DNA from: a virus
Length of the DNA stretch: 64,000 nucleotides
IMG/VR virus record: IMGVR_UViG_3300028844_007948
Location: 1-64,000 of that record
Strand: one strand, 5' to 3'
A program made the translations under genes and the position numbers. Positions within the stretch are counted from its first letter, which is position 1. Each line of letters opens with the position of its first letter. The notes below the pieces were generated by a model. It worked only from the letters and a program-made list of their open reading frames with translations. It searched no databases and was not told the DNA's origin. This document shows, piece by piece, positions 8,466 to 57,901 of this stretch.

Positions 8466-8642
8466 ATGAGAATTTCAATAGTATTGCTTTTTATATTAGC
8501 CTTATCCTCTTGCAAAAATAAAAAAAATTATAAATGGGAAGATAAATTGCACAGAACTCAATATCTTGACAGATGGGGGGAATTAGAAAGGATGAGGGAT
8601 CTAGAGAGATACCCCTACAGAAAATCAGAATTATTTTTTTAG
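8466..8642 (+). CDS. Small lipoprotein, 58 aa (not in ORF track)
   Basis: MRISIVLLFILALSS|CKNKKNYKWEDK...SELFF*; LSSC lipobox; leaderless start. Confidence 0.7.
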   Translation: MRISIVLLFILALSSCKNKKNYKWEDKLHRTQYLDRWGELERMRDLERYPYRKSELFF

Positions 8643-11112: not shown

Positions 11113-11116
11113 ATTA

Positions 11117-13845: not shown

Positions 13846-14564
13846 GTCAAGATGTCTTTATTTTCCAAAATTTTTAAAACTATTTTTTTAAATTTTAATT
13901 TCAAGTTTTTTATTTGTTTATATCCAGCTGTCCTACCTTTCTCATTAGTCTTGTACCCAAGTTCTATGGCGACCTCTTCCTCAGGTCTTTTTTCCAAAAA
14001 AAGCATTTTGTATATTTTATACTGTTTCTCTGATAAAGTCTTTTCTAACTCCTTATGAAGCTTCTCTATTGTTTTATTTAAATTGGTAGATTGAGCTTGA
14101 TGATCTTCGATATTTAATCTAGGTAAAACTTCTATGGATACTGGTATTTTAATTCCATAAGCATGTTTTTTAGACTTATTCCATTTTTTGTACAAAGGGC
14201 AAGTGCAATCTTGTTTTTTAGATTTAGTGAAGTCGCAATAATTATCAGTATCAGATGTACTTGTATTAAATGGGCATCCCACGCAAGGCTTGACAAAACT
14301 ATGATAATGGTTTCTTACTAGATTTTTGAGTTGATTAGTTATAATTTTATTAACCCAAGGAAGTAATGATCTAGACTGATCCCACTGATCCCATTTTTTA
14401 AAAATATGAAACCTTATTATTTGGGAAATATCATCGTAATCAAGCCATTGTAGGGATGTCAATCTCCACTTCCCCTTTCTTTTTCTGATTTCGTTATCTA
14501 TTTCGTCAGAATAAAAAGAGTAGCTTTTATTTCCTCCTTCTTCTGACTTTTCTTTTTTCACCAC
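13842..14564 (-). CDS. Phage-encoded sigma70-family (ECF-like) sigma factor with a Cys-rich insert
   Basis: sigma2-like DYDDISQ...FKKWDQWD...PWVNKIITNQLKNLVR; sigma4-like LSEKQYKIYKMLFLE..PEEEVAIELG; linker carries CxxC...C...CxC. Confidence 0.78.
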   Translation of the reverse strand: MVKKEKSEEGGNKSYSFYSDEIDNEIRKRKGKWRLTSLQWLDYDDISQIIRFHIFKKWDQWDQSRSLLPWVNKIITNQLKNLVRNHYHSFVKPCVGCPFNTSTSDTDNYCDFTKSKKQDCTCPLYKKWNKSKKHAYGIKIPVSIEVLPRLNIEDHQAQSTNLNKTIEKLHKELEKTLSEKQYKIYKMLFLEKRPEEEVAIELGYKTNEKGRTAGYKQIKNLKLKFKKIVLKILENKDILT

Positions 14565-14853
14565 TTTGTTTTATATTTTTCTGCGACTCTTCCTTTGGGG
14601 GTTCATTAATAAAATCTGAACCTTTATGTTTAACGCCCATTCCTTCGTAAGAAACTGAAACATCTAAATTACGAATGTCTGGGATTTCGAATACATCGGT
14701 GCCATCTTCGTCTAAGTCTTCATTGGTAGGCATTTTATTTGTTTTTATTTTTGCATTCGCATTGAATGGCTCTCCACATGAGGAGCAAAAATTTGGCCTA
14801 GACAAAGAGTACGCATTTTTATAACCGCAAGAAGGGCAATAAATATTCCCCAT
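14527..14853 (-). CDS. Zinc-ribbon protein
   Basis: YCPSCG...PNFCSSCGEP double CxxC, followed by an acidic then basic tail. Confidence 0.8.
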   Translation of the reverse strand: MGNIYCPSCGYKNAYSLSRPNFCSSCGEPFNANAKIKTNKMPTNEDLDEDGTDVFEIPDIRNLDVSVSYEGMGVKHKGSDFINEPPKEESQKNIKQSGEKRKVRRRRK

Positions 14854-14854
14854 A

Positions 14855-15202
14855 TTATTTACCCCCCTTATCTATTTTAAAGTATTTTATAATTTTTTTC
14901 ATTTCTTCTTGTGTCAAAGTCTCTCCATCCTTTAATACAACATCTAGATTAATTGATTCTGAAGACAAAGATCTTACCTGAGAAAAACCTTCTGAGGTGT
15001 ACTCAAATTGACTTTTAGTTTTTTCTTCTTCTTTATCTCTACCAATGTAAAGCTTAAAGTATTTTATTTTTTCTTTAGATATTAAATCTAAAAAATCTAT
15101 CGAAGTTTTTGCTTTAGAATATCTTTGTTTTATGTAAAAACATACTATGGTTACGATACAGGTAAACACACAGCTTATTAAAGATATAATTATTTCATTC
15201 AT
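14855..15202 (-). CDS. Membrane protein with a single N-terminal TM helix
   Basis: IIISLISCVFTCIVTIVCFYI followed by basic residues. Confidence 0.7.
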   Translation of the reverse strand: MNEIIISLISCVFTCIVTIVCFYIKQRYSKAKTSIDFLDLISKEKIKYFKLYIGRDKEEEKTKSQFEYTSEGFSQVRSLSSESINLDVVLKDGETLTQEEMKKIIKYFKIDKGGK

Positions 15203-15248
15203 AGATGCTGATATATTCTATACTAGAATGAAAAATATTCTACAATTT

Positions 15249-16457
15249 TTAATTAGGTGTATTATTTTCGTACTCGAATTTCTTATTCCAATCTACATTT
15301 CCATTTTCATCTATATATGGGGGGGGAGGTAAATCTGGCGATTTCTGAAGTCTATAAATTAAAAAAAATGTCAAAGAAAAAACCAAAACTACAATTCCGA
15401 CAGCAACCCATCCTAGAACCAATCCTAAATTCTTTAATATCCAAGGCTCTGGTTTGGGCTTAGGCTTTGGCTCTGGTTTGGGCTCTGGCTTCGGTTGGGG
15501 CTTGGGCTCTGGCTTCGGTTGGGGCTTGGGCTCTGGTTCTGGTTTGGGGTTAGTAGGATCAGGTTCCCCTAAAAGCATTGAGTCTGCATCAATGATTCCA
15601 TAACCCCAATCAGAGTCTTTGCCTGCTGAGCCCATGTCATCAGCATGACTTCTTAGTAGCTCTCTAATTTCATCCACAGTATGTATTTTTCCATCTTTTT
15701 TGCCTTTAGAAATTAGCAAGGCTACAACTCCAGCTACAAAAGGGCATGCCATGGAAGTGCCACTTAATCTAGCGTAACCCTTATCTTTATATGTGCTAAA
15801 TATATTGACTCCAGGAGCCGCAATTTCAACCTGTTTTCCACGAGAAGAAAACCTAGCAATCTTGTCGTCTTTAGAGTATGCAGCCACAGCTATACACTCT
15901 TCAAATGCAGCAGGATAGTTAACACCTGAAAATCCACTATTTCCAGCCGCACAAATGACTGGAATATTTTTTATATAAGCTTTTCTAACTGCAGATTGAA
16001 TTTCTGGACTGGGTGATCTTCCTCCTAGCGACATACTTATTAAATCTACATTTTTGCTTATACAATATTCTATAGATTTAGCTATACCTGAGTTAGATCC
16101 GCTACCGCTATTACTTAGTCCTTTGACACAAAGGCACTTTGCATCTGGGGCGACCCCAACCATACCTTGGTTATTATCTTTTGCAGAGATAATTCCAACG
16201 CAATGGGTTTGATGGCCATGCTTATCTTCTATTGATTCATTCGTTATAAAACTTTTTCCTTTAATTGCATTATCGCTAATATCAGGGTGATCAGGATACC
16301 CAGTATCTATAACACCTATTATGACATTTTGGCCAGTAGACTCCTTCCAAATTTTAGGAATATTAAGTTTGGATAAGCCCCAGTCAGTAGTTTGAGAAAA
16401 AGATGTATAAACTTCTTCTACTTTATATTCGGGTAGTCTAATTTCTTCCTTTTTCAT
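15249..16457 (-). CDS. Subtilisin-like S8 serine protease with Pro-rich stalk and C-terminal TM anchor
   Basis: Catalytic D (VIDTG), H (HGHQTH), oxyanion N (AAGN), S (GTSMA); (PKPE/PKPQ)n linker; hydrophobic helix LGLVLGWVAVGIVVLVFSLTFFLIY. Confidence 0.93.
   Translation of the reverse strand: MKKEEIRLPEYKVEEVYTSFSQTTDWGLSKLNIPKIWKESTGQNVIIGVIDTGYPDHPDISDNAIKGKSFITNESIEDKHGHQTHCVGIISAKDNNQGMVGVAPDAKCLCVKGLSNSGSGSNSGIAKSIEYCISKNVDLISMSLGGRSPSPEIQSAVRKAYIKNIPVICAAGNSGFSGVNYPAAFEECIAVAAYSKDDKIARFSSRGKQVEIAAPGVNIFSTYKDKGYARLSGTSMACPFVAGVVALLISKGKKDGKIHTVDEIRELLRSHADDMGSAGKDSDWGYGIIDADSMLLGEPDPTNPKPEPEPKPQPKPEPKPQPKPEPKPEPKPKPKPEPWILKNLGLVLGWVAVGIVVLVFSLTFFLIYRLQKSPDLPPPPYIDENGNVDWNKKFEYENNTPN
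15444..15569 (-). repeat. Coding tandem repeat for the (PKPE/PKPQ)n linker
   Basis: Includes two exact copies of the 24-mer GGGCTCTGGCTTCGGTTGGGGCTT. Confidence 0.85.
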
Positions 16458-17169
16458 TTTTACTATTTTTTGTTAATTTTCTTATTATAAATTTAAGTAC
16501 CTCGCTGCGTTTTATATCCGAGGCATTGAACGAAAAAGTCTCTATCCCATTTTTCGAGCTCTCTTCGTCGTTGAAGATTTTAATCATGCCACCGAAGCCA
16601 CTTTTACCATTTATATCGCTTTGCATCAAATCGCCGCAAATAAATAATTTACAGTTCTCGCCAATTCTAGTGATTAAGGTTGTCAATTCTTTAAAGGAAG
16701 CATTTTGAGCTTCGTCCATAATTACTATTTTATCTTTCCAACTACAGCCTCTAAGGAAATTAATCGGCATAGCATCTATCCGACCTTCTTTTATTAAATC
16801 AGTTTTAATCGTAGACCCTGATGGCATAACTTCCTCAAGTTTCTCCATGAGCGGGATCATGTAAGGATTAAACTTTTCATTCAAATCTCCTGGCAGAGCT
16901 CCAAGCCCCTTATCTGCACTTTCTATTATAGTCCTAATATATATTAGATCTAAATCTGGATTTTTAGACAATAACAAAAGCGAGGTATATACCGAAATAA
17001 ATGTTTTAGAGCTTCCAGCTGGTCCAGATACGAAAACTATTTTAGTTTTTTCGTCTGAGCTCATGGAGAAAAAAGCTTTTTGCTTTTCTGTGAACTTAAC
17101 ATTATTTAATTTAATTTTATTTAAATTAGACGTTATTAGGTCGTTTTGATTTTGTTTTTTTCTAGACAT
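16438..17169 (-). CDS. phoH: PhoH-like ATPase
   Basis: GPAGSSKT, LGALPGDLNEKFNPY, FLRG, DEAQN, TRIGE, GDLMQSD, DIKRS. Confidence 0.95.
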   Translation of the reverse strand: MSRKKQNQNDLITSNLNKIKLNNVKFTEKQKAFFSMSSDEKTKIVFVSGPAGSSKTFISVYTSLLLLSKNPDLDLIYIRTIIESADKGLGALPGDLNEKFNPYMIPLMEKLEEVMPSGSTIKTDLIKEGRIDAMPINFLRGCSWKDKIVIMDEAQNASFKELTTLITRIGENCKLFICGDLMQSDINGKSGFGGMIKIFNDEESSKNGIETFSFNASDIKRSEVLKFIIRKLTKNSKNEKGRN

Positions 17170-36718: not shown

Positions 36719-37233
36719 GCTATAGCTTTGACCATTCGGTCAATGAAATCGGCAACTTAGCATCAGGAATATACAAATTTGATTTCGACGAAAATAGTCA
36801 ATTTGTAAACCCTAGTTATCTTTCTGGTTGGTTGCAGAATAATATTGGCGAACTAAATGTTCTTACCCACACTAATTATAGTGGGGTGAATCCTGGCATG
36901 GGAAGCCAAGAACAAAGTATATATAGGCATATCTTTTTACGCGATTACTACAAGAAGTTGGGAAGAAAAGCTTTATTAGGGGTGAGTTATATTCCTTCAT
37001 CTCAATCAGGATCAGGAGAAGTTGTAACATCAGATTGGACAGAACTAAGAGAAGGAGATAGTGTAATTAAGAGGAAGGCTATGCTAGCAAGTCCTTCAGA
37101 AAAAATCACCACATCAAGGCAATACACCCAGCTTTCTAATGAATCAGCAAATGAATTAGAAAAATTATTATACAAGTATAATATATCAAAAGGCGGGCCA
37201 AGGCAGGTAGCAGGAAAAGACTCTCCTGCTTAA
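36715..37233 (+). CDS. Putative head-tail adaptor
   Basis: Position after the MCP; WTELREGDSVIKR beta-hairpin typical of adaptors. Confidence 0.55.
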   Translation: MSYSFDHSVNEIGNLASGIYKFDFDENSQFVNPSYLSGWLQNNIGELNVLTHTNYSGVNPGMGSQEQSIYRHIFLRDYYKKLGRKALLGVSYIPSSQSGSGEVVTSDWTELREGDSVIKRKAMLASPSEKITTSRQYTQLSNESANELEKLLYKYNISKGGPRQVAGKDSPA

Positions 37234-38219
37234 GAAAGATCCATAAGATCTTTCATGTTAAGGCTACCCCCTTTTTTTCTCGCAGCTTCAGAAAGTGAGC
37301 TTCCAGATTTAATGGAAGTTTTTTCGACTCCCATGTATTCGTAATCTTCTGCGGTTGCGCCAAAAACAGTAGAGGCTCCATCTTTATTTAAATGCTCTTT
37401 CATTTTCTCTCTACTTTTAGAGTTGCTTGAAAAATCTAATAATGCCGCTGGATCTTTTCTTATTTTTTCGGGGATATCTTGGTTGTTATCGAATATATTT
37501 TTAAAAACTCTACTGTAAGTTAGTATAGATAACTGGTTATTAGTTAAATCAATTGCAGACTTACCAAAAAAACTATGTGGGCCGTCAGCCATATACATAA
37601 ATGGAAAAAAGAATTCCTCTAAAATTATTTTTTGTATATTTTCCTCGCTGACAGATTTTACAACAGAATTATTTATTTCTGTTAGCTCTTTTATTTCACT
37701 GTAAGATAAGCTTGCAAAAAAATCATCAGACAAATATTTAGTTTTAAGATCTTTATCTTTGTAAAAACAATTTATGATAAAGTAATCATTTATTTGTTTG
37801 GAAGAATAACTTTCTGCAGTATTTCCAAGTATAGATTGCCTCTCAGACAATTTATTATTTAATTTTCCCTGCTCTTCATCGATTATTTTTTGATGAGCAT
37901 CTCTTTCTGATTTTAAATTTAAATTAGATTTTGTTTTTAATAAGTTATCTATAAAAATTTCTTGACCATCTATAAATGACTCATCTTTTTCTGACCAAAT
38001 ATCATTTTCTATAGCTTCCTCTAAGCATTTTTTCTCAGTTTGCAGACCTCTTCCTATAGCTTTCTTTAAGAAAAGGTCTTGCTTTTCATTGATGTCTATG
38101 TAATCGTTTGCATGGAGGTGCTTTACATAAACTTCCTCTTTTTTGTAATAAGATTTGCTATACCCTAGGCAAACATCTCTAAATATTTTTCTGTAGAAGT
38201 AATCGTCTTTCTCATACAT
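37230..38219 (-). CDS. Hypothetical protein, possible tail assembly chaperone (paralog of 38212-38973)
   Basis: Shares RGLQT/RGILT and SILGNTAESY/SLFNHTADSK blocks with its neighbour. Confidence 0.6.
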   Translation of the reverse strand: MYEKDDYFYRKIFRDVCLGYSKSYYKKEEVYVKHLHANDYIDINEKQDLFLKKAIGRGLQTEKKCLEEAIENDIWSEKDESFIDGQEIFIDNLLKTKSNLNLKSERDAHQKIIDEEQGKLNNKLSERQSILGNTAESYSSKQINDYFIINCFYKDKDLKTKYLSDDFFASLSYSEIKELTEINNSVVKSVSEENIQKIILEEFFFPFMYMADGPHSFFGKSAIDLTNNQLSILTYSRVFKNIFDNNQDIPEKIRKDPAALLDFSSNSKSREKMKEHLNKDGASTVFGATAEDYEYMGVEKTSIKSGSSLSEAARKKGGSLNMKDLMDLS

Positions 38220-38973
38220 TTCCAGAGTCTATATCGTCATTCAAACTATCGAAATCTTCTTTTGACGCGTTAGCACTGAAATACCAAAAACTTAATACAG
38301 ATAAAAGTTTATCTTTAACAAGGTCAAAGATTTCATGGCCGTTTTCATCAATATCATAATATTGTTCTATTTTATCTTGAACTTCTTCTCCGTTAAAGAA
38401 TGGCTTAGCATCAAGATCTTCGTCTTCTTGATAAAAAGACAAATGGACTAAATACCACAATATAACTTTATTTTGAGCTTTGCTGTCTGCGGTATGATTA
38501 AAAAGCGAAGAGTAAGATGTTTCCATGTCTACTATATCCCTCCTCTTTTCTGCCATTTCACCTAAGAGGTTACTTAACTTTTTTTCATCCTTATCATCCT
38601 TTTTTGGCTTGGAGGAAAGCCTGCTGTATCTATTTTGGAGATCTCCAAGTTCGCTATACCTTCGAGTTAGAAGTTTGGCATCATCTTCTGTTAGAAGGCC
38701 TCCTGTGTCACTATATTTTTTAGCTAGCATTGCTTTTGTAAGAATGCCCCTCTTAATGCATTTACTCATCTCAATGCTATATTCAATGTCAGCTTCTTCT
38801 AAATCTCTTCTATTTGGCTCTTTCAATATAATTTTAACTGGTACTGGCTTCTTTTTGGTTTCCTCAACGGAGTATTCTTCCATCTTGCCAGTTTCTTTAT
38901 TCTTTCTTTTCTTTGTTACTGATTCTGTGACGTCTCTTTCGACATCAACACTGAAGCTATATATTTCTTTCAT
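38212..38973 (-). CDS. Hypothetical protein, possible tail assembly chaperone
   Basis: IILKEPNRRDLEEA pattern resembles tail assembly chaperones; paralogous to the next gene. Confidence 0.6.
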   Translation of the reverse strand: MKEIYSFSVDVERDVTESVTKKRKNKETGKMEEYSVEETKKKPVPVKIILKEPNRRDLEEADIEYSIEMSKCIKRGILTKAMLAKKYSDTGGLLTEDDAKLLTRRYSELGDLQNRYSRLSSKPKKDDKDEKKLSNLLGEMAEKRRDIVDMETSYSSLFNHTADSKAQNKVILWYLVHLSFYQEDEDLDAKPFFNGEEVQDKIEQYYDIDENGHEIFDLVKDKLLSVLSFWYFSANASKEDFDSLNDDIDSGNV

Positions 38974-41427: not shown

Positions 41428-43176
41428 ATGGCCAGAAATAGAGTAATTTATCAAAGTGAAGCGCTTTTCGTTAGCCCTAATGCTACTGGCGCACACTTTA
41501 CATGTACAGCTGTCATAACAGGAATGGGACCAACTGGAGTGGCGGGTGTCGGACCTAACCTCGGAGGTCTAGGAGGACCTTCACTAGAAAGTGGAAATGC
41601 TTTAGGATTGCATACCCTAACAAACCCTATCGGTTTGTCAGAGGACCCAATTATATTAAAAAATAGAAGCAATGACAACTTTAGTAATGCAAGATTGGCA
41701 AGGGCAAGAAGTGTTGGTATAAAAATTGGTGACCCAGGGCTTTTAGACATCATTAACATTAGTGGTGCCGCTGAAGCTTCAATAAATGAAGAATTACGTT
41801 CAAAATTTGGCTGGGAGCCAGTAGGATCACCAAGTATAAATGGAGCTTCAAATCAAAATCTAGCTAGAGCTTTAATGGCTGGCGGGCAGACTGGACAATT
41901 AGCATTCTTCTCTAGAAAAGATAATTGGGATAATGCTACTGGTGCATATTATAATGAAATCCCTGGGCCAGCTGTTAGAGATGTAATACCTGACAAAAAC
42001 CACACACCTATAGGTGTGTTTTTACAACCATGGTCTGGATCATATGAAAATATGATTTCACAGGTTCATAGAGTTCAAAGTGCTAACTATAGTTTCACTA
42101 TTAATAGAACAGATGTTAATACATTTGGACAATTGGCTAGAATAGATGCTATTGCTCTTGAGCCGCCCACAGTTAACTTAGATTTTACATATTATCCTAC
42201 GGACGGCTTCAACGAAAGAAACCTTGGGTTTTATGTTCAAGGAGAAGATGGTTTAGGAAAAGGAATGGGATCCGAAGGAAAGAATGCTGCTGCAGATCAC
42301 CTTAAGGCAGATAATGCTGGCAAGAACTTCTTCATCCTTACAACTCCTGAATCTACTGATGCATTCAATACAACAGATGCGGTTTCAGAAAGAAGTGTTA
42401 TAGGTCTCGGAAATGGATTCTTGAGTGATTACACAATCGAAGCATCTGTTGGATCAATACCTACCGCAAATACTACCATTGAGTTGTACAATGCCAAGTC
42501 AGATATCGGAACTACAGGAGTAACTATCCCTGGAATTGGCCTCAAGGATGGTGTACCTTCTAGCGGAATTAACTTCAGTCTTGGTCATCCTGAGGCATTA
42601 AGAGGTGACTACAAAGGAGCATCTCCAAGTACGGGGCTTTTTGGAACTTCCTCAATCACAGCATTGAGGCCTGGAGATATCCAACTTGAGATTCCAAATG
42701 GACTATCTATGATAGCTAAGGTTTCTGGAGAAGGATCTATACATATTCAAAACTTCAGCCTCAGTATGCCATTGAGCAGAAGCCCAATCGATAGATTAGG
42801 TACTAGGTTCGCATTTTCTAGAGTTGTAGATCTTCCTGTTACAGCATCCTTGAGTGTAAGTGCTCTAATGTCTGATGTCGGAACTGGAAACCTTGCATCC
42901 CTGCTTGATGATTGTAAAGAGCATGACATCAAAGTTAAGATGATGGGGCAAGTAGGCTGTGAATTTGGTAATCCAAAAATAGAAGCTTTAACTATAGACT
43001 TCAAAGGTGCACGTGTTGATAGTGAATCGATATCATCTGATATAGGAAGTAATAAGAGTATTGATCTTACTTTTACTACCCAAATCGGTGGGCCAGAAGA
43101 TCTTATCCATGGAGTATTTATTTCTGGAGCTAACAGGAATAAAATTCCTGAGTATGCTAATGTTCCAAACAGATAA
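41428..43176 (+). CDS. Major tail (tube) protein
   Basis: RVQSANYSFTINRTDVNTFGQ, IQNFSLSMPLSRSPIDRLG (duplicated tube-fold pattern); own promoter and terminator; directly precedes the tape measure gene. Confidence 0.78.
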   Translation: MARNRVIYQSEALFVSPNATGAHFTCTAVITGMGPTGVAGVGPNLGGLGGPSLESGNALGLHTLTNPIGLSEDPIILKNRSNDNFSNARLARARSVGIKIGDPGLLDIINISGAAEASINEELRSKFGWEPVGSPSINGASNQNLARALMAGGQTGQLAFFSRKDNWDNATGAYYNEIPGPAVRDVIPDKNHTPIGVFLQPWSGSYENMISQVHRVQSANYSFTINRTDVNTFGQLARIDAIALEPPTVNLDFTYYPTDGFNERNLGFYVQGEDGLGKGMGSEGKNAAADHLKADNAGKNFFILTTPESTDAFNTTDAVSERSVIGLGNGFLSDYTIEASVGSIPTANTTIELYNAKSDIGTTGVTIPGIGLKDGVPSSGINFSLGHPEALRGDYKGASPSTGLFGTSSITALRPGDIQLEIPNGLSMIAKVSGEGSIHIQNFSLSMPLSRSPIDRLGTRFAFSRVVDLPVTASLSVSALMSDVGTGNLASLLDDCKEHDIKVKMMGQVGCEFGNPKIEALTIDFKGARVDSESISSDIGSNKSIDLTFTTQIGGPEDLIHGVFISGANRNKIPEYANVPNR

Positions 43177-43287: not shown

Positions 43288-46200
43288 ATGCCTCTAAAAA
43301 TACCAACAATACAGGTCGGACTAGAAAAGTCTATACAAAAGGCTGTAAAAAATGTCAGCGCTAGAGGGGGCTTATATTTAAGCTTAAATGATAAAAATTT
43401 CACAAGACCACTAGGCAAAATAACTGGGTCTGTAAGTGAATTTAATAGATCCTTAGAGGCTTCAAATGCTAGAGTATTAGCTTTCGGAGCTTCTGTCGGA
43501 ATGATACAAGGTGTGCAAACTGCATTTAAGGCCTTGTTGCAAACCACCATACAGGTAGAAAAGCAATTAACGGAAATTAATATCGTCATGGGACTGACGA
43601 ATAGCCAATTAGATGATTTCTCAAAAGGATTATTTAAAGTAGCAAAAAATACTGCTCAATCTTTCTCTACTGTAGCTACTGCAGCCACAGAACTAGCAAG
43701 ACAAGGTTTAACAATGGAAGAAACCTTGAAAAGGACAAATGATGCTCTCATACTGACTAGGCTGACTGGATTAGACGCAGCTAGTGCGGTGAATGGTTTA
43801 ACTGCCGCATTAAATACATTTAATAAAGCTGGTCTAGATTCTACTCAAATTTTAAGTAAAATGGCTGCCGTAGACGTGCAGTTTGCTGTTAGCACAGAAG
43901 ATTTAATAGATGCTGTTTCTAGAGCTGGTGCTGTAGCTCAAGATGCAGGAGTTAGTTTTGATGAATTACTAGGTGCTGTTACTGCAGCTCAACAAATGAC
44001 AGCTAGAGGTGGTAAGGTTATCGGTAATAGTTTTAAAACTATTTTCACCCGTGTACAAAGATCTACCACGATTAGTAGGCTTGAGGAGCTTGGAATAGCC
44101 GTAAGAGATGTAGCGGGTAACACACTCCCAGCAATTAGAGTATTAGAAAACTTATCAGCCACTTATGATAAGCTAGCAGATACTACAAAAGCTGCTGTAG
44201 CTGAACAAGTTGGTGGAGTTTTCCAAATAAACATTTTAAAAGCTGCTATAAATGACCTTTCTTCATCAAATAGCATTCTAGCTAGAGCAACTCAAATATC
44301 TGCAAGTGCAAGTGATGAAGCATACAAAAAGAATGAAATATTAAATAGATCATTATCTGCATTATCATCACAAGCAGCAACGAGTATAACTGAATTATCT
44401 AATATAATTGGAGAGATTGGATTCTCGAATCAAATAAGAGATTATCTTACATTTATAAGAGATCAGGTATCAAGCATAAATGATTTTCTCGGTCAAAAAG
44501 AAGGGGAATCTGCTGGAGCTGATTTTGCCAAAGGGCTCATTAAAGGCATAGGTAATGTTATTAGTGGTCCAGGTTTACTATTAGCGGCTGGTGTTTTAAT
44601 AAAATTATTCGCAAAAACTTCTACATTTTTAGTGGGAAGTGCTAAAGAATTGATGGGTGTTGTTAGCGCTAGCCAAAGGCAAAAACAAGTTCAAGAATCA
44701 ATAGTAGCTGTATTAGGGGAAAATAGTAGTCTTCAAAAAAGAATATTAGCCCAAGAGGGAAACAGGGCGGCACAAGAGAAGACCATATTAACATTACTTC
44801 AGGCTCAGTCTAGAGAGCAGCAAAGAATAGCTGCTACAGCAAAAGCTGTTGGACCAGCTATACTAAGAGCTGGATTTAACACCTCTTTACAAAGAGGAGG
44901 GAAGATAGCTAGTAGCGGCTTAATCCCAAACTATGTCACCCCGAAAGAAAAAGAAATGGAAAAACAGGGAGCCAGGGACGGTGGATACACTCCTGGCACC
45001 GTTAAATCCATGGACATAAAAGGAAAAGGAAGAATAATATATAATACAGCGGAAAAAGTTAAAAAATTTTCAGGAATGTCTGAGCCAGCAATATTACCAC
45101 CTTGGAGAAGTAAGGCAGGAAGAAAGTACAAAAACACATTTGAAGAAACTCACGGATTCAACCCTTATGCTAATAAAGGAATGATTCCTAATTATTCAAA
45201 ATCTAGATCTAATATTACTTTTAAGGAGATGGGGGGAGGTCAAATTGGGGGCCCCCCAAGGCAGGTCTTATTTAAATCTACGGTTGGAGGGGAGAAGTTC
45301 ACAGATGCTCAAACAATGGAGATCGTAGACCCCAAAAACGGTGGCAAAATGGGACTGCAAGTTATTTTCACTGGAGACTCTCCCTCCGAAATGAGAGGAA
45401 AAGGATACGGAAGAGAGTTGTACGAATACATGGCGAAGTATGCCAAGAGGAATGGCTACGGAGGCTTATATGGAGATATGGGGACTTCCATATCAGCAAT
45501 GAGAGTTGTAGATAGCATAGCAAAAAGAAAAAGCTTTAAAGTTGAAAAAAATCCAGACTTGAAGTTCATAAAAGATGACTTCGAAGAAGAAGGAATCTGG
45601 GGGAGCGACGACTGGACATATAGATTGTCAAACAAAGGCTTAATCCCGAATTACGGAGCATTTTCTCATGATAAAAATTTATTAGGAAGCTTACTCGCTA
45701 ATGATTTCGCCAAAGATGGAAGGATAAAATATCTTGACGCTCTTAGTTATGTTGACGAAAAAGGTTTAACATCTATATTAAAAAGCTTCAATAAATATGG
45801 AGAGCATGATGGCTGGAAGGCTTCTTGGCCTGGAATGCCCGTCAATCAGTTAATGAAGAATTTCCCCAAATACAGTACTGGCGGAAAACCTTACGATAGT
45901 GGAGCCAAAGGGCTTTACAGTGGATTAACCCCAACAAGAATAAAAGAAATATTAGAGAAGCCTGAAATAACAAGGCAATTTTATAAATATATAACTGGAA
46001 AAACATCCTCAATAGATGTGGAGTCTGGCTTGACACCTCAAGAAAAAGATTATTTTAAATCTAATTTTGGGATGGTTCCTAAATTAAAACACATAGAGGA
46101 CGGTTTCGTTTCCAGTGGGGCGAATCAAAAAAAGAAAAATCTTAATGCACTAAGATATGACTTTCTTAAAGCAGGGCCTAAAGGTGGCAGCTCCACCATG

Positions 46201-49200
46201 AGCAAAATTAAAACTCAGTTCAGGGGAACTCTATTTAAAGACCCTAAAAGAAGAGCTAATCTTTTTAGGCAAAATAATGAATTAGCACCAGATCCTATAC
46301 TGCAATTACCTTATGACCCAGGCAGGAGGCATATTGACCCCAATATAAGAATGGCGCAGCCTGGTGACTACTTAAAAGCCCAGCAATTAAAGCTTGAACA
46401 AGAAATGATGGGGTCTCAATCTGGAATTCTAAGAGGATCCTCTTTTAGAGCTAGTGATATGGGTAGAATGAGGTCAGCACTGTCATTTAATACATCAGCC
46501 AGAGATTATCAAAATAAATTTTTAGTAAACGAATTCGAAGAGTTAATGAAAGGCCAAGAAGGAAAAAGAGATCCAATGTCTTTTTCTAAAGCCGAAAGAA
46601 GAATAAGCGGAAGATTAAAAGTAAATCCAAGAATTAGGAGTTTTTACGAAAATATGACAAGAGCCACTCGATCAAAATGGGGCTTTTCTGGAGGAATGAT
46701 TCCTAATTTTGGATTAAAAATAAATGCTGGAGCCATGAAAAGCATTGGACTTCAGTCTACATTAGGTCAAGCTAAAAGTAGGCAAGAAGGAGTTATAGGC
46801 ATGTCAGAGCTGGATAAAATCCTGCAAAGTAATTTATTTAAATCAATTAAATACCTCCCGCTAAAAAGCGACACTCCAATCATGATAAAAAATGCAAGGT
46901 ATGGAGTTCATAGCTTAAAGAAAGGAGCTCCCCCACCAAAAGGATTCAAAAGTTGGAAAGATTTTGACGAGAATAGCCCACTTGGTAGAACCAGAGTGGT
47001 TTATGCTAAGCCAAAAACTGAATCTGAAAAACCTTTTAAGAGGCTTAAGCTTGAAAGAATAGAAAGTATAAACCATCAAGGAAAAACCCTTACAGTTGAC
47101 CCTAATTTAGCTAACAACGGTTTAATTCCGAACTTTATTTTTAAGAAATTAAAAACTGTATCTCAGGCCGTAAAAACATTTAAAGAGGATACTGGGGCAT
47201 TTTCAGCTGGAACCAGAAATAACATTTGGAGTACTACTCAAAATAAAATCAAGCTGAGATCTAGTAATTACGATGATGTCAGGCAATTTGTTAATAGCAA
47301 GAGTTTTAGACTATTAGATCCAGCAGAACAAAAAAGAATAAAATCCGATCTGAAAGCTCAATCCGAATCATTGAACATGAATGATGTTACCAGGCCTTAT
47401 TTTCAGTATGATGATCCTGATTACCAAGGAGCAATTCATGCAAATAAAGGTTTGATACCAAATTACTCAAAGCTTTTTTCAGAAGGAGCGAAAAATGTTT
47501 TATCTAAAAACCCTCAGTATACTGGAGCTGTTCAAGAAGCAATTCAAAGAGAGGCTTCTTTTGGATTAACCCCCAAGGTCGTGGAAGCTCACTCATTAAA
47601 GAGCTCTAAGAATCCTGGTCTTGCCGTAGTAAACCAAGAGCAGGAATCTGGAAGTTTACAAAAAGCCAGAATTCTTCATGGAGGGTTGAACCCTAATCAA
47701 AAAACTTCAGCCGTTCCCAACTATGCAAAAACACAAGTTGATGTAACCAAAGTACTACAATTAAGAAAAGAATCTGTAAGAAACATAAATGATGTAGGTT
47801 TAAATTCAGTATCTAAATCTTTTGATAGAGCGGCTAATGTGATAGATAAGTTTTCAACAAGCGTCAAAAGCGCTCAATCTTACCTCGGCCAACAAGGTAC
47901 TGAATACGCAAAATCATCAGAGTTAATTAAAGAAGCTAATCTAAGAGAAAAAGCGAGGCTCGGAACTTTAGAAAAAGAGACTTCGGCTAGAAAAAAATAC
48001 ATGAGAGAGGTTCTTAGAAAGGACTCCCTAGCGAAACTTTCTTCACGATCTGGACCAGTAGGAGAATTGGCAACACAATTTATGGGCTCTAGTAATTTTG
48101 AAAAAGATTTAAAATTCAGAATGGGGGTAGCCAAGGAAGCTAATGACTTTGAAACATTAAAAGGTCTGAAAAAGTTTGACAAGGCAATAGACGAAAGTGC
48201 CAGAGGCATGTTTAATAATGCAACCACAAAAGCTAGTATATTAAATAGCCAACTCAGAGAGAGTACAAAAGACGGAAATAAACTAAAAAGATTTCAAGGG
48301 GCAGAAGGTTTTGGCAAAAGAGAAATGAGGAAATTTTTTAGTCAAAGCTTTCTTCAAGAAAGAGGCATCCAAACACTTGACAGTAAAGAGTCCATGAATG
48401 TTATGGCTTCAATGGGAGAAAGGGGAGAAAAAGCATTTCAAGATTATGTAAAATCCCAAGGCGTAATGTCTAGCAATAAAACTTTAGCAAGAGCAGGTCT
48501 TAGAACTGGAGATTTCTCATCATTGCTTGGAGGAAATGATGGAAAAAACTTCATAAAACAATTAGAAAAGTACCAAAGAATGGTTGACGGCGGTGCTAAG
48601 GGCAAGGGCACAGCCAGAAGAGAGCTTATGAGAGAGGCTGCCAGAATTGGTGCAGATTCAGCTTCTTCAGAGAAACTCCAAAGCATGGTGCTTTCAACTC
48701 AAAAACAAGTTAAAGATGATGCTCCTAAAGGAGCACCGCAATCAGCAAGAGATAGAATATCAGGAGGAAGAATTTCTGGAGCTCTTGGATCCTTCCAGTC
48801 TGGAATGTCTGGATCTGGATTAAGATCTCAAGGGTTTATGGGACTCGTTGGGAATAGAGCAGGGCAAGGAATCAATAGATTTGGAACTGGAGCGAAAAAC
48901 TTTATGAAGGGTGGGTTTGGTGCAGCTGGTGGGCAAATGGGATTAGGCCTCTCTATAGCCGCCCCAATGTTAGCGGGCATGGTGGCAAATAAAACCCCAA
49001 GGGAAGATAGAGCCGTATTACAAAATGGACAATTTAATGTTCAGGGAACTGGAGCAGATACGGCATCTAGTACATTGATGGGTGTTGGTATGGGAGCTAT
49101 ATTTGGTGCTCCAGGCGCTATTGTAGGAGGTGTTATAGGATTTGTACAGTCTCTTACGAAGGCAACTCTAACTATAGATGAACAAATAAGAGTAAGAGAA

Positions 49201-52200
49201 AAAGAAATAGCCATCATAGGTCAAAATGTTCAAGCAGCCCAATCTCTTCAGAATTTATCATCAGCTAGGGCTGAAGCTTTTGCCGTAGGAGACTCTGATA
49301 GAATCGCAGAAATTGATACAGCAATGAATAGAGCTTTGGCTGGGGTCAATGATAAAAAAACATTAACAGCTTTAGCTGCATCAGGGGGAGATTCAGATGC
49401 TTTGTCAAAAATACAAAGACAACTACAAGATCAAATGACAAACGCTGTTAGTGTTCAGAATTTTGGAGTAGCTCTAAAGAATTCCGACCAACAAAAAGCA
49501 GCAAAAAATGCTGGAGTTGCAATGGGAGGAATGATAGCCCAAGCAATAAGAAATGAAAATGTAGATGAATCTACTGCACTAGATATATTGAGAAATATAC
49601 AGACTAGTACGGCTCAAAAAGAAAAAAGTGGAATGCTTGACACTAAAAGCCTAAATGCTTTAAGGAAAAAAGCCTCAGGAGGTCAAGAGTTAACCAGTGG
49701 ACTAGGTATGGCAGGAGGTCTTGCTGGAGGACTGATGGCTGGAGGAGCTGCCTTGAGTATGTCTGGAGTAGGCATGCCGCTTGGGTTGGCAATGGCGGCT
49801 GCAGGAGCAGGAATAGGCATATTAAGCGGAAGAGCTATTGAAAGTGGAGCAGCTAAAAGTGATTTAGAAAAACAACAAAAATTAGGATTAGATGAAATTA
49901 ACGAACTATCAAAACTAGTAGATGCTGGAGCGATGACAGAGACTGCAATGAATCAATTAGTTGCAGCTTTTAGGGAGGGAGAAATAAGCATGGGAGATAT
50001 AGCTAAAGAAGCAGAATCTGCCGTTGTAGAGTTTCAAAAAATTAAAAAAGCATCTGATAGAGCAAGCTCTGCGTTATTTAATATAGATCAATCATTCAAA
50101 AGAACTATTGGCAAAATGGTTGTTGATTTAGAAGTTAACAAGATAAGATCAGCAGCTGAATCTAACGCAAGAAAATCGAATGTTAATTTCACATCTCAAT
50201 TCATGTCGCCAATTAGTGCTAGTGATTTCTTAGCAAGAGAACAATCTAAAATATTAGCTTCGGATGCTCAAGGCAGAGTAGGACAATTTCAAAGAGAAAC
50301 AGATATTAATTTCCTTAGAGGAGTTCAATCAAAATCAAAAAGTTTAAATTTCGGCGGGCCACAAATGGAGTTCGTAAGAAAGACGGTCGAAGATCAAGGA
50401 GTTGGCTCGATAGAGTCAATGATCAGAAGAAGGGAAATGTCTGGAGTAATGAATTTAAACCTAAATACAAAAAATCTTGACGATATATTTGAAAAAGTAG
50501 GAGTAAAAGGTGGGGTCGATGCTTTCAATAAAGATAGCAAAATAACAATGCCAGAAAACTTGAACGAACTGAAAGACCTTCTTGGCACTGGAGATAAAGA
50601 TGAACAAAAAAGAATAATGGATGAGCTTGTCGCAAACCTACCTAAGGCAAGACAAGAAGGATCCATGCAAACTAAATTTACAAGAGCTCTTGAAGGAGCA
50701 GATGTTCAAACTTTAACAGAAATAATAGATTTAAGGAAAGAGCAGTTTAGAATTGTTCAGGAGCAAATACTGGCTGAAAGAAAAAATTTAAGCATACAAA
50801 TAGCTCAACAAAAAATACAAACACAAATACAGGCGAAGCTTGAAAGCTTAAGGCAGGAATCTTCAAATAGAAGTATGGCCTTAGACACTAATATGATAGG
50901 TGTGAGAGGGAGGGCTGATACAAACAGATCACTCACTGGTTTTGAAGCTCAATCTCCTATTTTTAGAGGAATGTCTTCTGACGCGGAAGAGTCAAAAAGA
51001 CAGACTGGTCTAAGAAAAAGAGTTTTTGATGAAGATATAAAAGTTAGAAAAGCTGAAGCTTTAAATATGTTAAAAAAAGAGGCTGTCAGACTTTTATCTG
51101 AGAAAAATTTAGTTGATGCATTAAATGATTTAAAATCATCAATAGAAAAAGAAACTGATTTTGCAGCTACAGAAGGAAATCAAGTAGGCTCACAAAAAGG
51201 GCAACAGATTCCAGTAAAGACTGAGCCGTCATCCGCAGCCAGTTCGGCATCTGGAGCGGGAGCTGGAAAAAGTCCAGCTGTAAAAATGGGAAAACAAATG
51301 TCTTCGTTTAAAACGAGCGGAAACAATGAGGAAGGCTCAAAGAGGATAAAGGAAATAGGAAAAAAGATAGATCAAAATAATATAGAAATAAAAACTCAAG
51401 AGAGTAAGCTGAACACTGAAAGTAGTGTAGAAGACACACTAGCAACAAAACTTAAAAAATATAAAGGTGTATTAAAACAACTTGAAAACTTAAATAACTT
51501 GCCTGAAAACAAAACCTCTTTCAGTAAGCCTGGCAATCTATTCAAACGTAACGAACGAGATGATTCAAGAGAAAGCGCAAAAAGAAAACTTCAAGATTTG
51601 GATCTTAATCAATTTTCAAAAGTTACAGGAACTCGCCTTGATGTTTTTGATGGATTTGATTCAGGAGATTCTGGGGGGAGCTATGTACAAACTAGCAGGG
51701 ATGCAACTGATGCCGAAATGATCAAATCAATGACAGATCTTGTTGAAAAAACAGAATCCCAACTACAAGAGACTAGAAGTAAAAAAGGATCTACAGAGAG
51801 TGCTATAGAAAAAGCTAAATCAGAAATCCAAGAACAAAAAAAGCAGATCGAAGAAATAGAAAAGCAAATGGCAGAAGGTGTTGTTGAGCTTTCTGACACT
51901 CTTAAAGGCCAAAATATAAGTTTAAAAAACATCAATGTAGAAAAGACAGCAAATTTAACTAAAGATTTATTTAAGGCTGATTCAATAGAAGGACTTACCG
52001 AAACTCTAAATAAGAATTTAGAAGATATTAAGGCTAATGACCCTTCTGGACAAATAGCTCTTCAGCTTCAAGGATGGGGAGAGTTGGTTAACAATGTTGG
52101 AGCTAGTCTAGATGATGCCGTTCGAGCATTTAACGTAGAAGAGGCTAAGAGAGCTCAAGAAGAATTTAATAGAAATTTGACATTTTCAAATTATTCAAGC

Positions 52201-54018
52201 GGAGCATTTGAGCAGCTTAATGCCATTAATCAAGGACAGAAAACCATTCGCGCTGGTGTTGGAGTAGGAATTATGGATAAAGTTGTTGACCAGGAAAGAA
52301 GGCAACTAAATTTTGACACAATAAACCAAGATCCAACATCAACACCACTAGAAAGAGCAAGAGGAAAAGCAGAACTACAATCATTCACCATAGGAACAAA
52401 AGATCAAAGAGTTCAAATGGGGAGCCTCAGGGACGAACAAGCCCTTCAAAATAGAGATTTAATTGATGCTGAAAGAGACAGATTAAATGCAGTATCCGCA
52501 GGAAAAGCAGCTAAGACTGACGAAGCAAAGTTTGCCGCAAAAAGTGTGGAAGAATCAGCTGTTGCTAGAATAGCAGAATTAAAAGGTACAATAGAAAACC
52601 TTGACAAAAGTATGCTAGACTTAGCTCATCAAATGGAGAGAACTACCCCAAGAGATAAAGGGTTCGTCTCTGAATTTAAACAAAATACATCGATGGGGCT
52701 TGAGTTAGGTTTTGCTGAAATAGAAGCTCAATCTGAGCAAATATATACAAGACTAGGACAAGACTTGCCAATGGTTTTCAGAGATGGTCTTGTAGACGCA
52801 ATGCAAGCAGCCTTAGACGGAAGTCAAAAATTAGGAGATTCCTTTGAGCAAATAGGAATGTCTTTATTACAAAACATACAGAAAGCATTCCTGACAAGTG
52901 CTTCAAACAGAATAACTGGTGCCGTAGGATCTGTGTTTGGGCTAGACGGTTATAATACTGGGGGATATGTAAATGGTGGAAGTGGAATAAAAGATGATGT
53001 CCCAGCGATGTTAATGGGGGGAGAGTATGTAATCAAAAGGAGTGCTGTACAAAAATACGGAGTAAACTTTTTAGAAAACTTAAATCAAGGAAGTATACAA
53101 GGGTTTGCTGGAGGAGGAGCCGTTCTTAATGTAGGATCTCCAATGGCAGCAGAAAGAGAGTCTTATGTAGACAAAAGTAAATATGGAAATGTAACTAGAT
53201 ATAAAACAAAACAAGCTGGTATAGGAATCAATAGTCAGCTTACTGGATATGCAATAGCAAATGATAGAAGTATACAGAAATACTTTAGAGATCAAGAGAC
53301 TCAATTTAATCAGAATTTAAATACAAAAAAACAAGAAGAAGCAAGACAGAAAAATAAAGATTACGAGAAGAAGGCAAAGAAAAGAAGCTTTTGGAATATG
53401 GTTATAGGAATAGCTGGATCCGCTTTATTGGGGAAAGCTGTTCAATGGGGTACTGATAAGTTCAAGCAAACCGATTTTTACAAAAATAGAGCTGCAGCTA
53501 AGGCTGAAAGGTCTATGGCGGATAATGGATATGTTCAAGTAAGAGGTAAAAGCATTCAGCGATTATACCCAAAACCTTCAGACCAATCTGGTGTCAGGAA
53601 AATGATTAGCAATGCCCACAGGGATGGAGGCTGGAAAGCTGCATCTACAATAATGCGGGATAATAATATAAGAGGTACTGTTGACGAAACTGGGGTACAA
53701 CTAAATAAAGGCGGCGCAGTACCAGCAAGGCTTACTGGAGGGGAATATGTAATGAGTCCAGGAGCTGTTAAAACTTATGGCTCTTCATTGATGCAGAATT
53801 TAAACAATGGCTCCATACAAACTGGCGGTCAATCTGGTCAATCTGGTCAAGTAAGTAATGTTTCCCATGGAGATGTGAATATAAGTATAAATGTAGACAA
53901 TTCTGGAGGAGCTTCTTCTGGAGGAGGTTTAAATTCACCAGAGTTTGCGTCAAAAGTCAAGAGTGCAGTAATGAATATAATTTCACAAGAAAAAAGAGTT
54001 GGAGGGAGTTTGAGGTAA
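43288..54018 (+). CDS. Tape measure protein (TP901-type core) with an internal cargo-domain array
   Basis: N-terminal TMP core (ELARQGL, GNSFKTIFTR, LEELGI); C-terminal GGYVNGGSGIKDDVPAMLMGGEYV and VPARLTGGEYV motifs; Gly/Ala-rich TM-like segments. Confidence 0.92.
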   Translation: MPLKIPTIQVGLEKSIQKAVKNVSARGGLYLSLNDKNFTRPLGKITGSVSEFNRSLEASNARVLAFGASVGMIQGVQTAFKALLQTTIQVEKQLTEINIVMGLTNSQLDDFSKGLFKVAKNTAQSFSTVATAATELARQGLTMEETLKRTNDALILTRLTGLDAASAVNGLTAALNTFNKAGLDSTQILSKMAAVDVQFAVSTEDLIDAVSRAGAVAQDAGVSFDELLGAVTAAQQMTARGGKVIGNSFKTIFTRVQRSTTISRLEELGIAVRDVAGNTLPAIRVLENLSATYDKLADTTKAAVAEQVGGVFQINILKAAINDLSSSNSILARATQISASASDEAYKKNEILNRSLSALSSQAATSITELSNIIGEIGFSNQIRDYLTFIRDQVSSINDFLGQKEGESAGADFAKGLIKGIGNVISGPGLLLAAGVLIKLFAKTSTFLVGSAKELMGVVSASQRQKQVQESIVAVLGENSSLQKRILAQEGNRAAQEKTILTLLQAQSREQQRIAATAKAVGPAILRAGFNTSLQRGGKIASSGLIPNYVTPKEKEMEKQGARDGGYTPGTVKSMDIKGKGRIIYNTAEKVKKFSGMSEPAILPPWRSKAGRKYKNTFEETHGFNPYANKGMIPNYSKSRSNITFKEMGGGQIGGPPRQVLFKSTVGGEKFTDAQTMEIVDPKNGGKMGLQVIFTGDSPSEMRGKGYGRELYEYMAKYAKRNGYGGLYGDMGTSISAMRVVDSIAKRKSFKVEKNPDLKFIKDDFEEEGIWGSDDWTYRLSNKGLIPNYGAFSHDKNLLGSLLANDFAKDGRIKYLDALSYVDEKGLTSILKSFNKYGEHDGWKASWPGMPVNQLMKNFPKYSTGGKPYDSGAKGLYSGLTPTRIKEILEKPEITRQFYKYITGKTSSIDVESGLTPQEKDYFKSNFGMVPKLKHIEDGFVSSGANQKKKNLNALRYDFLKAGPKGGSSTMSKIKTQFRGTLFKDPKRRANLFRQNNELAPDPILQLPYDPGRRHIDPNIRMAQPGDYLKAQQLKLEQEMMGSQSGILRGSSFRASDMGRMRSALSFNTSARDYQNKFLVNEFEELMKGQEGKRDPMSFSKAERRISGRLKVNPRIRSFYENMTRATRSKWGFSGGMIPNFGLKINAGAMKSIGLQSTLGQAKSRQEGVIGMSELDKILQSNLFKSIKYLPLKSDTPIMIKNARYGVHSLKKGAPPPKGFKSWKDFDENSPLGRTRVVYAKPKTESEKPFKRLKLERIESINHQGKTLTVDPNLANNGLIPNFIFKKLKTVSQAVKTFKEDTGAFSAGTRNNIWSTTQNKIKLRSSNYDDVRQFVNSKSFRLLDPAEQKRIKSDLKAQSESLNMNDVTRPYFQYDDPDYQGAIHANKGLIPNYSKLFSEGAKNVLSKNPQYTGAVQEAIQREASFGLTPKVVEAHSLKSSKNPGLAVVNQEQESGSLQKARILHGGLNPNQKTSAVPNYAKTQVDVTKVLQLRKESVRNINDVGLNSVSKSFDRAANVIDKFSTSVKSAQSYLGQQGTEYAKSSELIKEANLREKARLGTLEKETSARKKYMREVLRKDSLAKLSSRSGPVGELATQFMGSSNFEKDLKFRMGVAKEANDFETLKGLKKFDKAIDESARGMFNNATTKASILNSQLRESTKDGNKLKRFQGAEGFGKREMRKFFSQSFLQERGIQTLDSKESMNVMASMGERGEKAFQDYVKSQGVMSSNKTLARAGLRTGDFSSLLGGNDGKNFIKQLEKYQRMVDGGAKGKGTARRELMREAARIGADSASSEKLQSMVLSTQKQVKDDAPKGAPQSARDRISGGRISGALGSFQSGMSGSGLRSQGFMGLVGNRAGQGINRFGTGAKNFMKGGFGAAGGQMGLGLSIAAPMLAGMVANKTPREDRAVLQNGQFNVQGTGADTASSTLMGVGMGAIFGAPGAIVGGVIGFVQSLTKATLTIDEQIRVREKEIAIIGQNVQAAQSLQNLSSARAEAFAVGDSDRIAEIDTAMNRALAGVNDKKTLTALAASGGDSDALSKIQRQLQDQMTNAVSVQNFGVALKNSDQQKAAKNAGVAMGGMIAQAIRNENVDESTALDILRNIQTSTAQKEKSGMLDTKSLNALRKKASGGQELTSGLGMAGGLAGGLMAGGAALSMSGVGMPLGLAMAAAGAGIGILSGRAIESGAAKSDLEKQQKLGLDEINELSKLVDAGAMTETAMNQLVAAFREGEISMGDIAKEAESAVVEFQKIKKASDRASSALFNIDQSFKRTIGKMVVDLEVNKIRSAAESNARKSNVNFTSQFMSPISASDFLAREQSKILASDAQGRVGQFQRETDINFLRGVQSKSKSLNFGGPQMEFVRKTVEDQGVGSIESMIRRREMSGVMNLNLNTKNLDDIFEKVGVKGGVDAFNKDSKITMPENLNELKDLLGTGDKDEQKRIMDELVANLPKARQEGSMQTKFTRALEGADVQTLTEIIDLRKEQFRIVQEQILAERKNLSIQIAQQKIQTQIQAKLESLRQESSNRSMALDTNMIGVRGRADTNRSLTGFEAQSPIFRGMSSDAEESKRQTGLRKRVFDEDIKVRKAEALNMLKKEAVRLLSEKNLVDALNDLKSSIEKETDFAATEGNQVGSQKGQQIPVKTEPSSAASSASGAGAGKSPAVKMGKQMSSFKTSGNNEEGSKRIKEIGKKIDQNNIEIKTQESKLNTESSVEDTLATKLKKYKGVLKQLENLNNLPENKTSFSKPGNLFKRNERDDSRESAKRKLQDLDLNQFSKVTGTRLDVFDGFDSGDSGGSYVQTSRDATDAEMIKSMTDLVEKTESQLQETRSKKGSTESAIEKAKSEIQEQKKQIEEIEKQMAEGVVELSDTLKGQNISLKNINVEKTANLTKDLFKADSIEGLTETLNKNLEDIKANDPSGQIALQLQGWGELVNNVGASLDDAVRAFNVEEAKRAQEEFNRNLTFSNYSSGAFEQLNAINQGQKTIRAGVGVGIMDKVVDQERRQLNFDTINQDPTSTPLERARGKAELQSFTIGTKDQRVQMGSLRDEQALQNRDLIDAERDRLNAVSAGKAAKTDEAKFAAKSVEESAVARIAELKGTIENLDKSMLDLAHQMERTTPRDKGFVSEFKQNTSMGLELGFAEIEAQSEQIYTRLGQDLPMVFRDGLVDAMQAALDGSQKLGDSFEQIGMSLLQNIQKAFLTSASNRITGAVGSVFGLDGYNTGGYVNGGSGIKDDVPAMLMGGEYVIKRSAVQKYGVNFLENLNQGSIQGFAGGGAVLNVGSPMAAERESYVDKSKYGNVTRYKTKQAGIGINSQLTGYAIANDRSIQKYFRDQETQFNQNLNTKKQEEARQKNKDYEKKAKKRSFWNMVIGIAGSALLGKAVQWGTDKFKQTDFYKNRAAAKAERSMADNGYVQVRGKSIQRLYPKPSDQSGVRKMISNAHRDGGWKAASTIMRDNNIRGTVDETGVQLNKGGAVPARLTGGEYVMSPGAVKTYGSSLMQNLNNGSIQTGGQSGQSGQVSNVSHGDVNISINVDNSGGASSGGGLNSPEFASKVKSAVMNIISQEKRVGGSLR
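44908..47724 (+). repeat. Eight copies of a protein-level motif xxxG[LM]IPN[YF] delimiting modules in the TMP
   Basis: ASSGLIPNY 44908, ANKGMIPNY 45169, SNKGLIPNY 45628, SNFGMVPKL 46060 (degenerate), FSGGMIPNF 46684, ANNGLIPNF 47110, ANKGLIPNY 47440, SAVPNY 47707 (degenerate). Confidence 0.9.
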
Positions 54019-57520: not shown

Positions 57521-57901
57521 ATGCAAGAAGAAATTTTAAATAATATAAAAAAAATATCGGAAGCTAATCCTGAAGAGGAAGTGTGCGGCTTCTGGGTCTC
57601 TTGCAAGAAGCAACCAATAATTCAATGCAAAAATGTAGCACTAGATCGGGAAAACAACTTTGAAATATCTGCGGAAGAATATATAAACACATTTAATACA
57701 AAAAATATAATTCTACTATTTCATTCTCACCCAAAAGACACCGAAAGATTTTCAAAAGAAGATTTGTATATAAGTCAGCAATTAGAGATGCCAATATTAG
57801 TATACAGTAATGCAACAAAAAAATTTAATTTTTATAAGCCAGATTCAATAAAAAAAAATAAAACACTAAATACTATAGAAAAAAGTGTAGTTACATACTA
57901 A
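57521..57901 (+). CDS. JAB/MPN (Mov34) metalloprotease, gpK-like, without the NlpC/P60 domain
   Basis: EEVCG, CKN, FHSHP.....FSKED. Confidence 0.88.
   Translation: MQEEILNNIKKISEANPEEEVCGFWVSCKKQPIIQCKNVALDRENNFEISAEEYINTFNTKNIILLFHSHPKDTERFSKEDLYISQQLEMPILVYSNATKKFNFYKPDSIKKNKTLNTIEKSVVTY
57885..57889 (+). promoter_or_regulatory. GTGTA putative late-promoter element
   Basis: Upstream of TAAGGAAAAGGAA and the ATG at 57912. Confidence 0.55.

Follow-up and report, generated by a model that had tools for sequence, protein, structure and literature searches.

We analysed the first 64 kb (positions 1 to 64,000; hereafter the window) of a 163,424-bp contig (33.6% GC) from an uncultured phage, IMG/VR record IMGVR_UViG_3300028844_007948, in which the tape measure gene holds an internal array of domains fenced by one repeated peptide. 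Unless stated otherwise, all features lie on the plus strand. The open reading frame (ORF) at 43288..54018, the longest gene, encodes 3576 residues and no cysteine. It matches PhageMin_Tail (PF10145) at residues 118–310 (43639..44217; E 1.9e-25, Pfam) and five PHROG tape measure families, and its hydropathy peaks at residues 420–452 (TM1, 44545..44643), 1930–1957 (TM2, 49075..49158) and 2160–2181 (TM3, 49765..49830), with TM1 found in 94% of 67 relatives. The gene lies upstream of distal tail and M-, L-, K-, I- and J-like genes, and the order that follows it (minor tail genes, a gpL-like gene, a JAB peptidase gene, a tail assembly gene and a J-like gene) is that of lambda-type siphophages. By every test available, namely domain content, gene position and hydrophobic segments, the protein reads as a siphophage tape measure. 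An assembly chimera was ruled out: an independent contig (P0001), 95% identical, carries the same array.

Six exact copies of G[LM]IPN[YF], with glycines at residues 544, 631, 784, 1136, 1278 and 1388, occur in the protein, bearing out the six clear copies counted in a preliminary description of this DNA; across 2000 shuffles the mean and the maximum were both 0, and no copy of comparable score was found in the other ORFs of the 163,424-bp genome. The nine-residue motifs occupy residues 541–549 (motif 1, 44908..44934), 628–636 (motif 2, 45169..45195), 781–789 (motif 3, 45628..45654), 1133–1141 (motif 4, 46684..46710), 1275–1283 (motif 5, 47110..47136) and 1385–1393 (motif 6, 47440..47466). A search with residues 400–640 yielded 94 full-length tape measures of 1973–4959 residues, and DNA was obtained for 18 viral contigs. 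Across 95 proteins, a profile recovered 406 distinct motif copies, and none in reversed sequences, with the consensus [AS]-[SAN]-x-G-[FLHY]-[IV]-P-N-[FY]; at least three copies occur in 88 of the 95. Codon identity between copies (0.51 within genomes and 0.47 between genomes, against 0.46 expected) follows gene-wide usage; selection therefore acts on the peptide, as the preliminary description had held, and a site-specific DNA recombination site, such as a recombinase would use, was rejected because motif codons vary like the rest of the gene.

Cutting the relatives at the motif and clustering the pieces revealed a common layout, in which a domain termed F1 is followed by one to eleven cargo modules and then by a domain termed F2. 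In full, the order is N-terminal scaffold, TM1, motif, F1, motif, repeated units of cargo and motif, F2, motif, scaffold, TM2/TM3 and C-terminal scaffold. F1 (residues 550–627, 44935..45168), small and β-rich with an invariant Glu, is present in 82 of about 95 relatives, and F2 (residues 1394–1479, 47467..47724) in 84; being conserved, both are fixed flanks and not cargo. No cultured phage carrying F1 was found. The window thus holds four cargo modules, A to D, in place of the seven modules counted at first from segment lengths that are themselves correct. Besides the two flanks, the difference lies at residue 928, where a degenerate motif copy had been taken as a boundary between modules 3 and 4. 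This boundary was rejected: residues 790–1132 align whole with relatives, and residue 928 falls inside a confidently folded stretch of the structure model (predicted local distance difference test, pLDDT, 82–88). The other degenerate copy, which closes F2, is complete in many relatives. Four relatives (P0071, P0072, P0076 and P0080) show no strong motif copy, three of them keeping F1, and are possible array-less or degenerate forms.

Cargo A (residues 637–780, 45196..45627) was confirmed by structure search as the GNAT fold suspected earlier, with an invariant acetyl-CoA motif A and a ratio of nonsynonymous to synonymous substitution rates (dN/dS) of 0.025; acyl transfer is its predicted activity. 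Cargo B (residues 790–1132, 45655..46683) is a single 343-residue module whose N-terminal half is folded and mostly helical and whose C-terminal half is variable and poorly predicted. Outside the tape-measure family it has no match among 1.84 billion representatives, all 10 matches looking like family members or fragments, and the ESM Atlas gave no usable match. Cargo C (residues 1142–1274, 46711..47109) is a probable WYL/SH3-like barrel; of the earlier barrel reading, one BFVD WYL match is in favour (E 4e-3, with a TM of 0.73 by target over an unstated range of the model), and no Pfam or PDB sequence match was obtained. A free-standing 98-residue relative of C exists and contains a Cys. Cargo D (residues 1284–1384, 47137..47439) is small (101 residues), folded and mostly helical. 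No fold was found for B or D in a search confined to a 767-residue model dominated by the GNAT domain. All five true motifs within the structure model fall in linkers with pLDDT<50, and the folded modules that these low-pLDDT linkers separate support the proposal that cargo modules fold on their own. A free-standing GNAT relative was rejected, its sole long-contig match (P0103) proving to be part of a tape measure gene whose frame is broken in a polished long-read assembly. On the polished long-read contig L041, the tape measure gene (6424–16795) lies in many pieces, probably through sequencing frameshifts, and its F1-GNAT junction matches that of the window.

Comparison of the arrays leaves little room for doubt that the family gains, loses and rearranges cargo cassettes at junctions located within the motif. 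The 94 relatives carry 103 cargo types in arrays of 1–11 modules, and 28 close relatives display 20 different arrays; module A stands first in the window's array and last in others, with five different following neighbours. Where two junctions share the upstream module, identity is high to position -3 and drops to background past the motif; where they share the downstream module, identity does not exceed background ahead of the motif and is elevated from +6 onward, from which it follows that exchange happens inside the motif. The preliminary description had called the motif a recombination anchor, which holds for the position of the exchange points and fails for a DNA-level recombination site, given the codon usage. 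Its prediction that flanks would be conserved while modules vary in number and identity agrees with the comparison of the 94 relatives. Junctions may arise through microhomology and selection for an intact peptide: 18–27 bases of partial identity would guide recombination to the motif, and only junctions restoring it intact would survive. Set against the 95%-identical relative, whose array is the same, the window's gene shows a sharp rise in synonymous divergence directly past motif 2 (37/138 codons in A versus 93/945 in the flanks, p 3e-7, a comparison chosen after looking), as would be expected from a recent allele swap. Two relatives (P0028, residues 1594–1724; P0030, residues 1437–1566) hold an extra F2-type domain and modules of 14–19 residues in mid-array, which suggests a duplicated array end. 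Modules or runs are duplicated within the arrays of L014 (residues 756–1013 and 1939–2200), P0036 (1374–1522), P0018 (626–896) and P0066 (947–1361), as unequal crossing-over at the motif would be expected to produce.

The scaffold is constant in length. In 27 of the 28 close relatives, the N-terminal part measures 621–627 residues and the C-terminal part 2099±70, and the array ranges from 535 to 1998 residues, a 3.7-fold variation without compensation. Purifying selection on cargo is stronger than on the C-terminal scaffold, catalytic or cofactor motifs are invariant in the GNAT and kinase-like clusters, and ART-PolyVal and SNase cargo in relatives exceed their Pfam cut-offs. Several cargo domains are predicted enzymes that would need cytoplasmic substrates (acetyl-CoA, NAD+, ATP or nucleic acid); most of the 103 types have no Pfam match. 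The default cargo of 43 relatives, absent from the window, is a PD-(D/E)xK nuclease candidate with an E, D, (D/E)xK signature conserved by eye, for which fold and family searches returned no match. Cluster 25 is a candidate ART by its R / S-T-S / E-x-E pattern, likewise judged by eye, with no PDB match. A precomputed VanY D,D-carboxypeptidase domain (PF02557) is recorded in the P0085 tape measure.

Three patterns, absent from the preliminary description, bear indirectly on the route that the cargo would take. All 103 cargo types are net basic, compared with 47–49% of the phage's other ORFs and 46% of scaffold windows, and 94% remain basic after linker trimming. Among the 23,697 cargo residues there is one cysteine, against an expectation of about 334; the lambda and T5 tape measures contain none. 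In 67 proteins, the chain is basic from the first hydrophobic segment, here TM1, to the next one after F2, here TM2 (median +0.058 per residue), the array is basic in 100%, and the parts outside the hydrophobic segments are neutral. Under the positive-inside rule, a basic stretch between membrane segments marks the cytoplasmic side, and the TM1–TM2 stretch may accordingly form a cytoplasmic loop of a membrane-inserted tape measure. Tape measures are ejected upon infection (PMC10713586), and for that of TP901-1 a cytoplasmic domain between hydrophobic regions has been modelled (PMC5099701). Since unrelated enzymes obey the compositional rules of their carrier, they most likely travel its route, and we consider it probable that the cargo reaches the host cytoplasm.

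The array motif has a likely relative in the tape measure maturation site. Cleavage of T5 pb2 takes place after R1127 (PMC10038345); the chain continues with A-E-G-G-M-M and then a GE..E..TP element, and six T5-like phages all have R-A-x-G-G. Two A-x-G-G motifs of this kind are present in lambda gpH, where a piece starting at residue 733 would amount to 12.7 kDa, compared with a reported mass of about 14 kDa for the fragment that cleavage releases (PMC12617516). Near the C-terminus, the window's protein carries two canonical copies of A-x-G-G plus GE domain, at residues 3219–3279 (52942..53124) and 3472–3518 (53701..53841), related to those of lambda (E 6e-7) and to PDB 8zdo_S. Array motif and canonical copies have in common a small-x-G-G-hydrophobic-[VI] geometry, of which the array motif keeps one Gly. 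In three relatives (P0069, P0081 and P0087), an array motif with an F1-type domain stands at the C-terminal position and the canonical domain is absent; these proteins have more motif pairs and flank-type domains at about 2550–2950 and near the C-terminus, in place of the canonical GE domains. Given the common geometry and this replacement, kinship with the A-x-G-G maturation motif, of which the array motif would be a variant, is the most likely reading; the array profile ranks the lambda motif 1 of 846 sequence windows.

Whether the motif is likewise cut is a closer call that leans toward cutting. The residues before the T5 cut, A-N-[SG]-F-[VI]-P-R, also resemble the array motif, so the cut could fall either before the small residues or after Pro-Asn. 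As a matter of speculation, the protease could be the product of the JAB gene, a host protease, or the protein itself, by self-cleavage at the near-invariant Asn. The gpK-like JAB peptidase gene (57521..57901; PF14464 above cut-off) stands in the lambda-type M/L/K/I/J block and encodes the JAB domain alone (126 residues), without the NlpC/P60 part; JAB motifs also occur downstream in relatives L020, L025 and L029.

Taken at even chances, the array is an injected, probably cut, effector polyprotein. It would be built unfolded into the tail with the tape measure; at infection the tape measure would be ejected, its hydrophobic segments would enter the inner membrane, and the basic TM1–TM2 stretch holding the array would enter the cytoplasm ahead of the DNA. 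A weaker part of this reading is that the motif, as a version of the maturation site, might allow the array to be separated into single proteins, whether while the tail matures or once inside the cell. Freed cargo would modify host proteins or nucleic acids and so take over the cell or blunt its defence; the targets may be either defence systems or housekeeping machinery.

Several points weigh against this reading. Cutting is known for only two tape measures, those of T5 and lambda (PMC12617516), and the tie to T5 is an indirect, two-step argument from short motifs: the T5 site comes only 45th among 1212 sequence windows ranked by the array profile, the residue before the array motif is not conserved, unlike the Arg of T5, and HHalign of F1/F2 with the canonical GE domain gave no link (probability under 2%). 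Clusters 14 and 17 in relatives are joined without a recognisable motif, and release of every domain is therefore not required. Of the cargo folds, that of C is weakly assigned and those of B and D are unassigned. The family has no cultured member; host labels were set aside as unreliable, consisting of one 2.4-kb contig in a Proteobacteria metagenome-assembled genome (MAG) and one Bacteroidota MAG label.

The basic charge and the absence of cysteine would suit just as well the main rival reading, which we rate as real yet doubtful: an uncut array that stays tethered, looping from the membrane-inserted tape measure into the cytoplasm and working there, where the DNA channel opens. Lying between TM1 and TM2 in a positive-inside stretch, the array needs no cut for cytoplasmic access; TP901-1 offers a modelled precedent, and some modules are fused without a motif. 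During injection, moreover, the tape measure is where the membrane-bound defence nuclease SNIPE acts (PMC13190303), and counter-measures tethered there would be of use. The motif would then be a chaperone or tube-wall binding site, or a spacer keeping passengers unfolded, copied from the C-terminal motif. Set against this, the nearest motif of known role is a cut site, and the array motif is kept between nearly all modules, in disordered linkers.

The uncompensated variation of the array beside a constant scaffold, as if the array were not measured, could instead mean that it is cut out during tail assembly, leaving a ruler of scaffold alone (about 2640 residues) and modules that act late in the producing cell or are packed in the head. 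This is improbable: domains freed in the producer cytoplasm need not be uniformly basic and Cys-free, and the free-standing relative of module C does have a Cys. We regard it as very unlikely that captured domains serve only to make the tape measure longer or to mask it, for instance from defences that sense it, with enzymatic activity irrelevant. The many cargo types without a Pfam match and the occurrence of duplicated and very short modules would suit such filler or decoy; the invariant catalytic and cofactor motifs, the ART-PolyVal and SNase matches above cut-off, and a purifying selection exceeding that on the C-terminal scaffold speak against it. Excision and inert filler fit the composition and selection data less well than injection does.

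Other features were noted around the gene and on the contig. Immediately 5' of the tape measure, an acidic 582-residue protein (41428–43176; net -15), with no Pfam or PHROG match, is likely a tail tube protein with a large insertion. On the minus strand, opposite to the tail genes, two acidic, helical-looking ORFs with an 8-base overlap (37230–38973), without a PHROG match, are possibly a tail assembly chaperone pair in unusual orientation. G000:C1 holds a long sugar-nucleotide and glycosyltransferase-like gene cluster at about 83000–103500, judged by N-terminal sequences only, and one tRNA-Arg at 158784–158860.

The array resembles several known systems and coincides with none. Polyvalent proteins are very large proteins of the virion region with disparate conflict domains, proposed to be processed and injected with DNA (Iyer et al. 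2017, PMC5512222). Here too, several disparate, variable domains (GNAT, ART, kinase and nuclease types) lie among virion genes, and one cargo in relatives passes the ART-PolyVal cut-off. The carriers of polyvalent proteins, however, are MuF, portal or virion RNA polymerase, and the word 'tape' is absent from that paper; the present carrier is the tape measure, its domains fenced by one repeated peptide and swapped at it. The zincin HExxH, common and not universal in polyvalent proteins, is missing from the 3576-residue protein and occurs in 4/95 proteins. As in T5 pb2 and lambda gpH (PMC10038345; PMC12617516), a canonical motif with GE domain lies near the C-terminus. In T5, an enzymatic C-terminal piece is split off by a cut ahead of A-x-G-G, and cutting in both phages takes place during tail assembly; unlike their one cut near the C-terminus, the array presents a motif variant 3–14 times in the N-terminal half, among exchangeable domains, as putative cuts. 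In Sle1-type effectors (Nagakubo et al. 2026, PMC13277306), a tape-measure-related protein is likewise a reconfigurable carrier of a variable functional domain; that carrier belongs to an actinobacterial contractile injection machine and has one C-terminal functional domain, whereas here a genuine phage tape measure, within a lambda-type tail block, holds an internal multi-cassette array.

The preliminary description had also likened the array to polymorphic toxin systems (Rhs, contact-dependent inhibition and MuF toxins). The analogy holds for cassettes exchanged at a conserved peptide beside a variable enzymatic domain and breaks down elsewhere: the toxin of those systems is C-terminal, whereas here the variable region is internal (residues 637–1384 of 3576) and multiple; no immunity gene lies beside the tape measure, the next gene (54020) belonging to the tail block; and cargo profiles found no clear copy, as an orphan cassette would be, elsewhere in the 163,424-bp genome. 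The array is not a polymorphic toxin system. Cut tape measures and polyvalent effectors were already known; no description of their union in a motif-fenced, shuffled tape-measure array was found in the literature searched, which left most subscription papers outside its reach.

To our knowledge, siphophages have little known means of protein injection besides the tape measure itself. We tentatively propose, as somewhat short of an even prospect, that the array represents a general protein-injection system of long-tailed phages, in which repeated copies of the maturation site make up an array that works much like a cloning site, and any domain rendered basic and Cys-free can be slotted in, cut free and driven into the cytoplasm before the DNA. 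If so, the ruler would double as an effector magazine whose grammar is the motif, basic charge and absence of cysteine between two membrane segments. Its 100 or more cassettes would form a new catalogue of early-acting host-takeover and anti-defence proteins, and the motif would give a sequence rule for the long-sought tape-measure protease, making testable what cuts tape measure proteins, and why. Such a system would also explain the giant size of some tape measures, and tail length could no longer be read off from the length of the gene as a rule.

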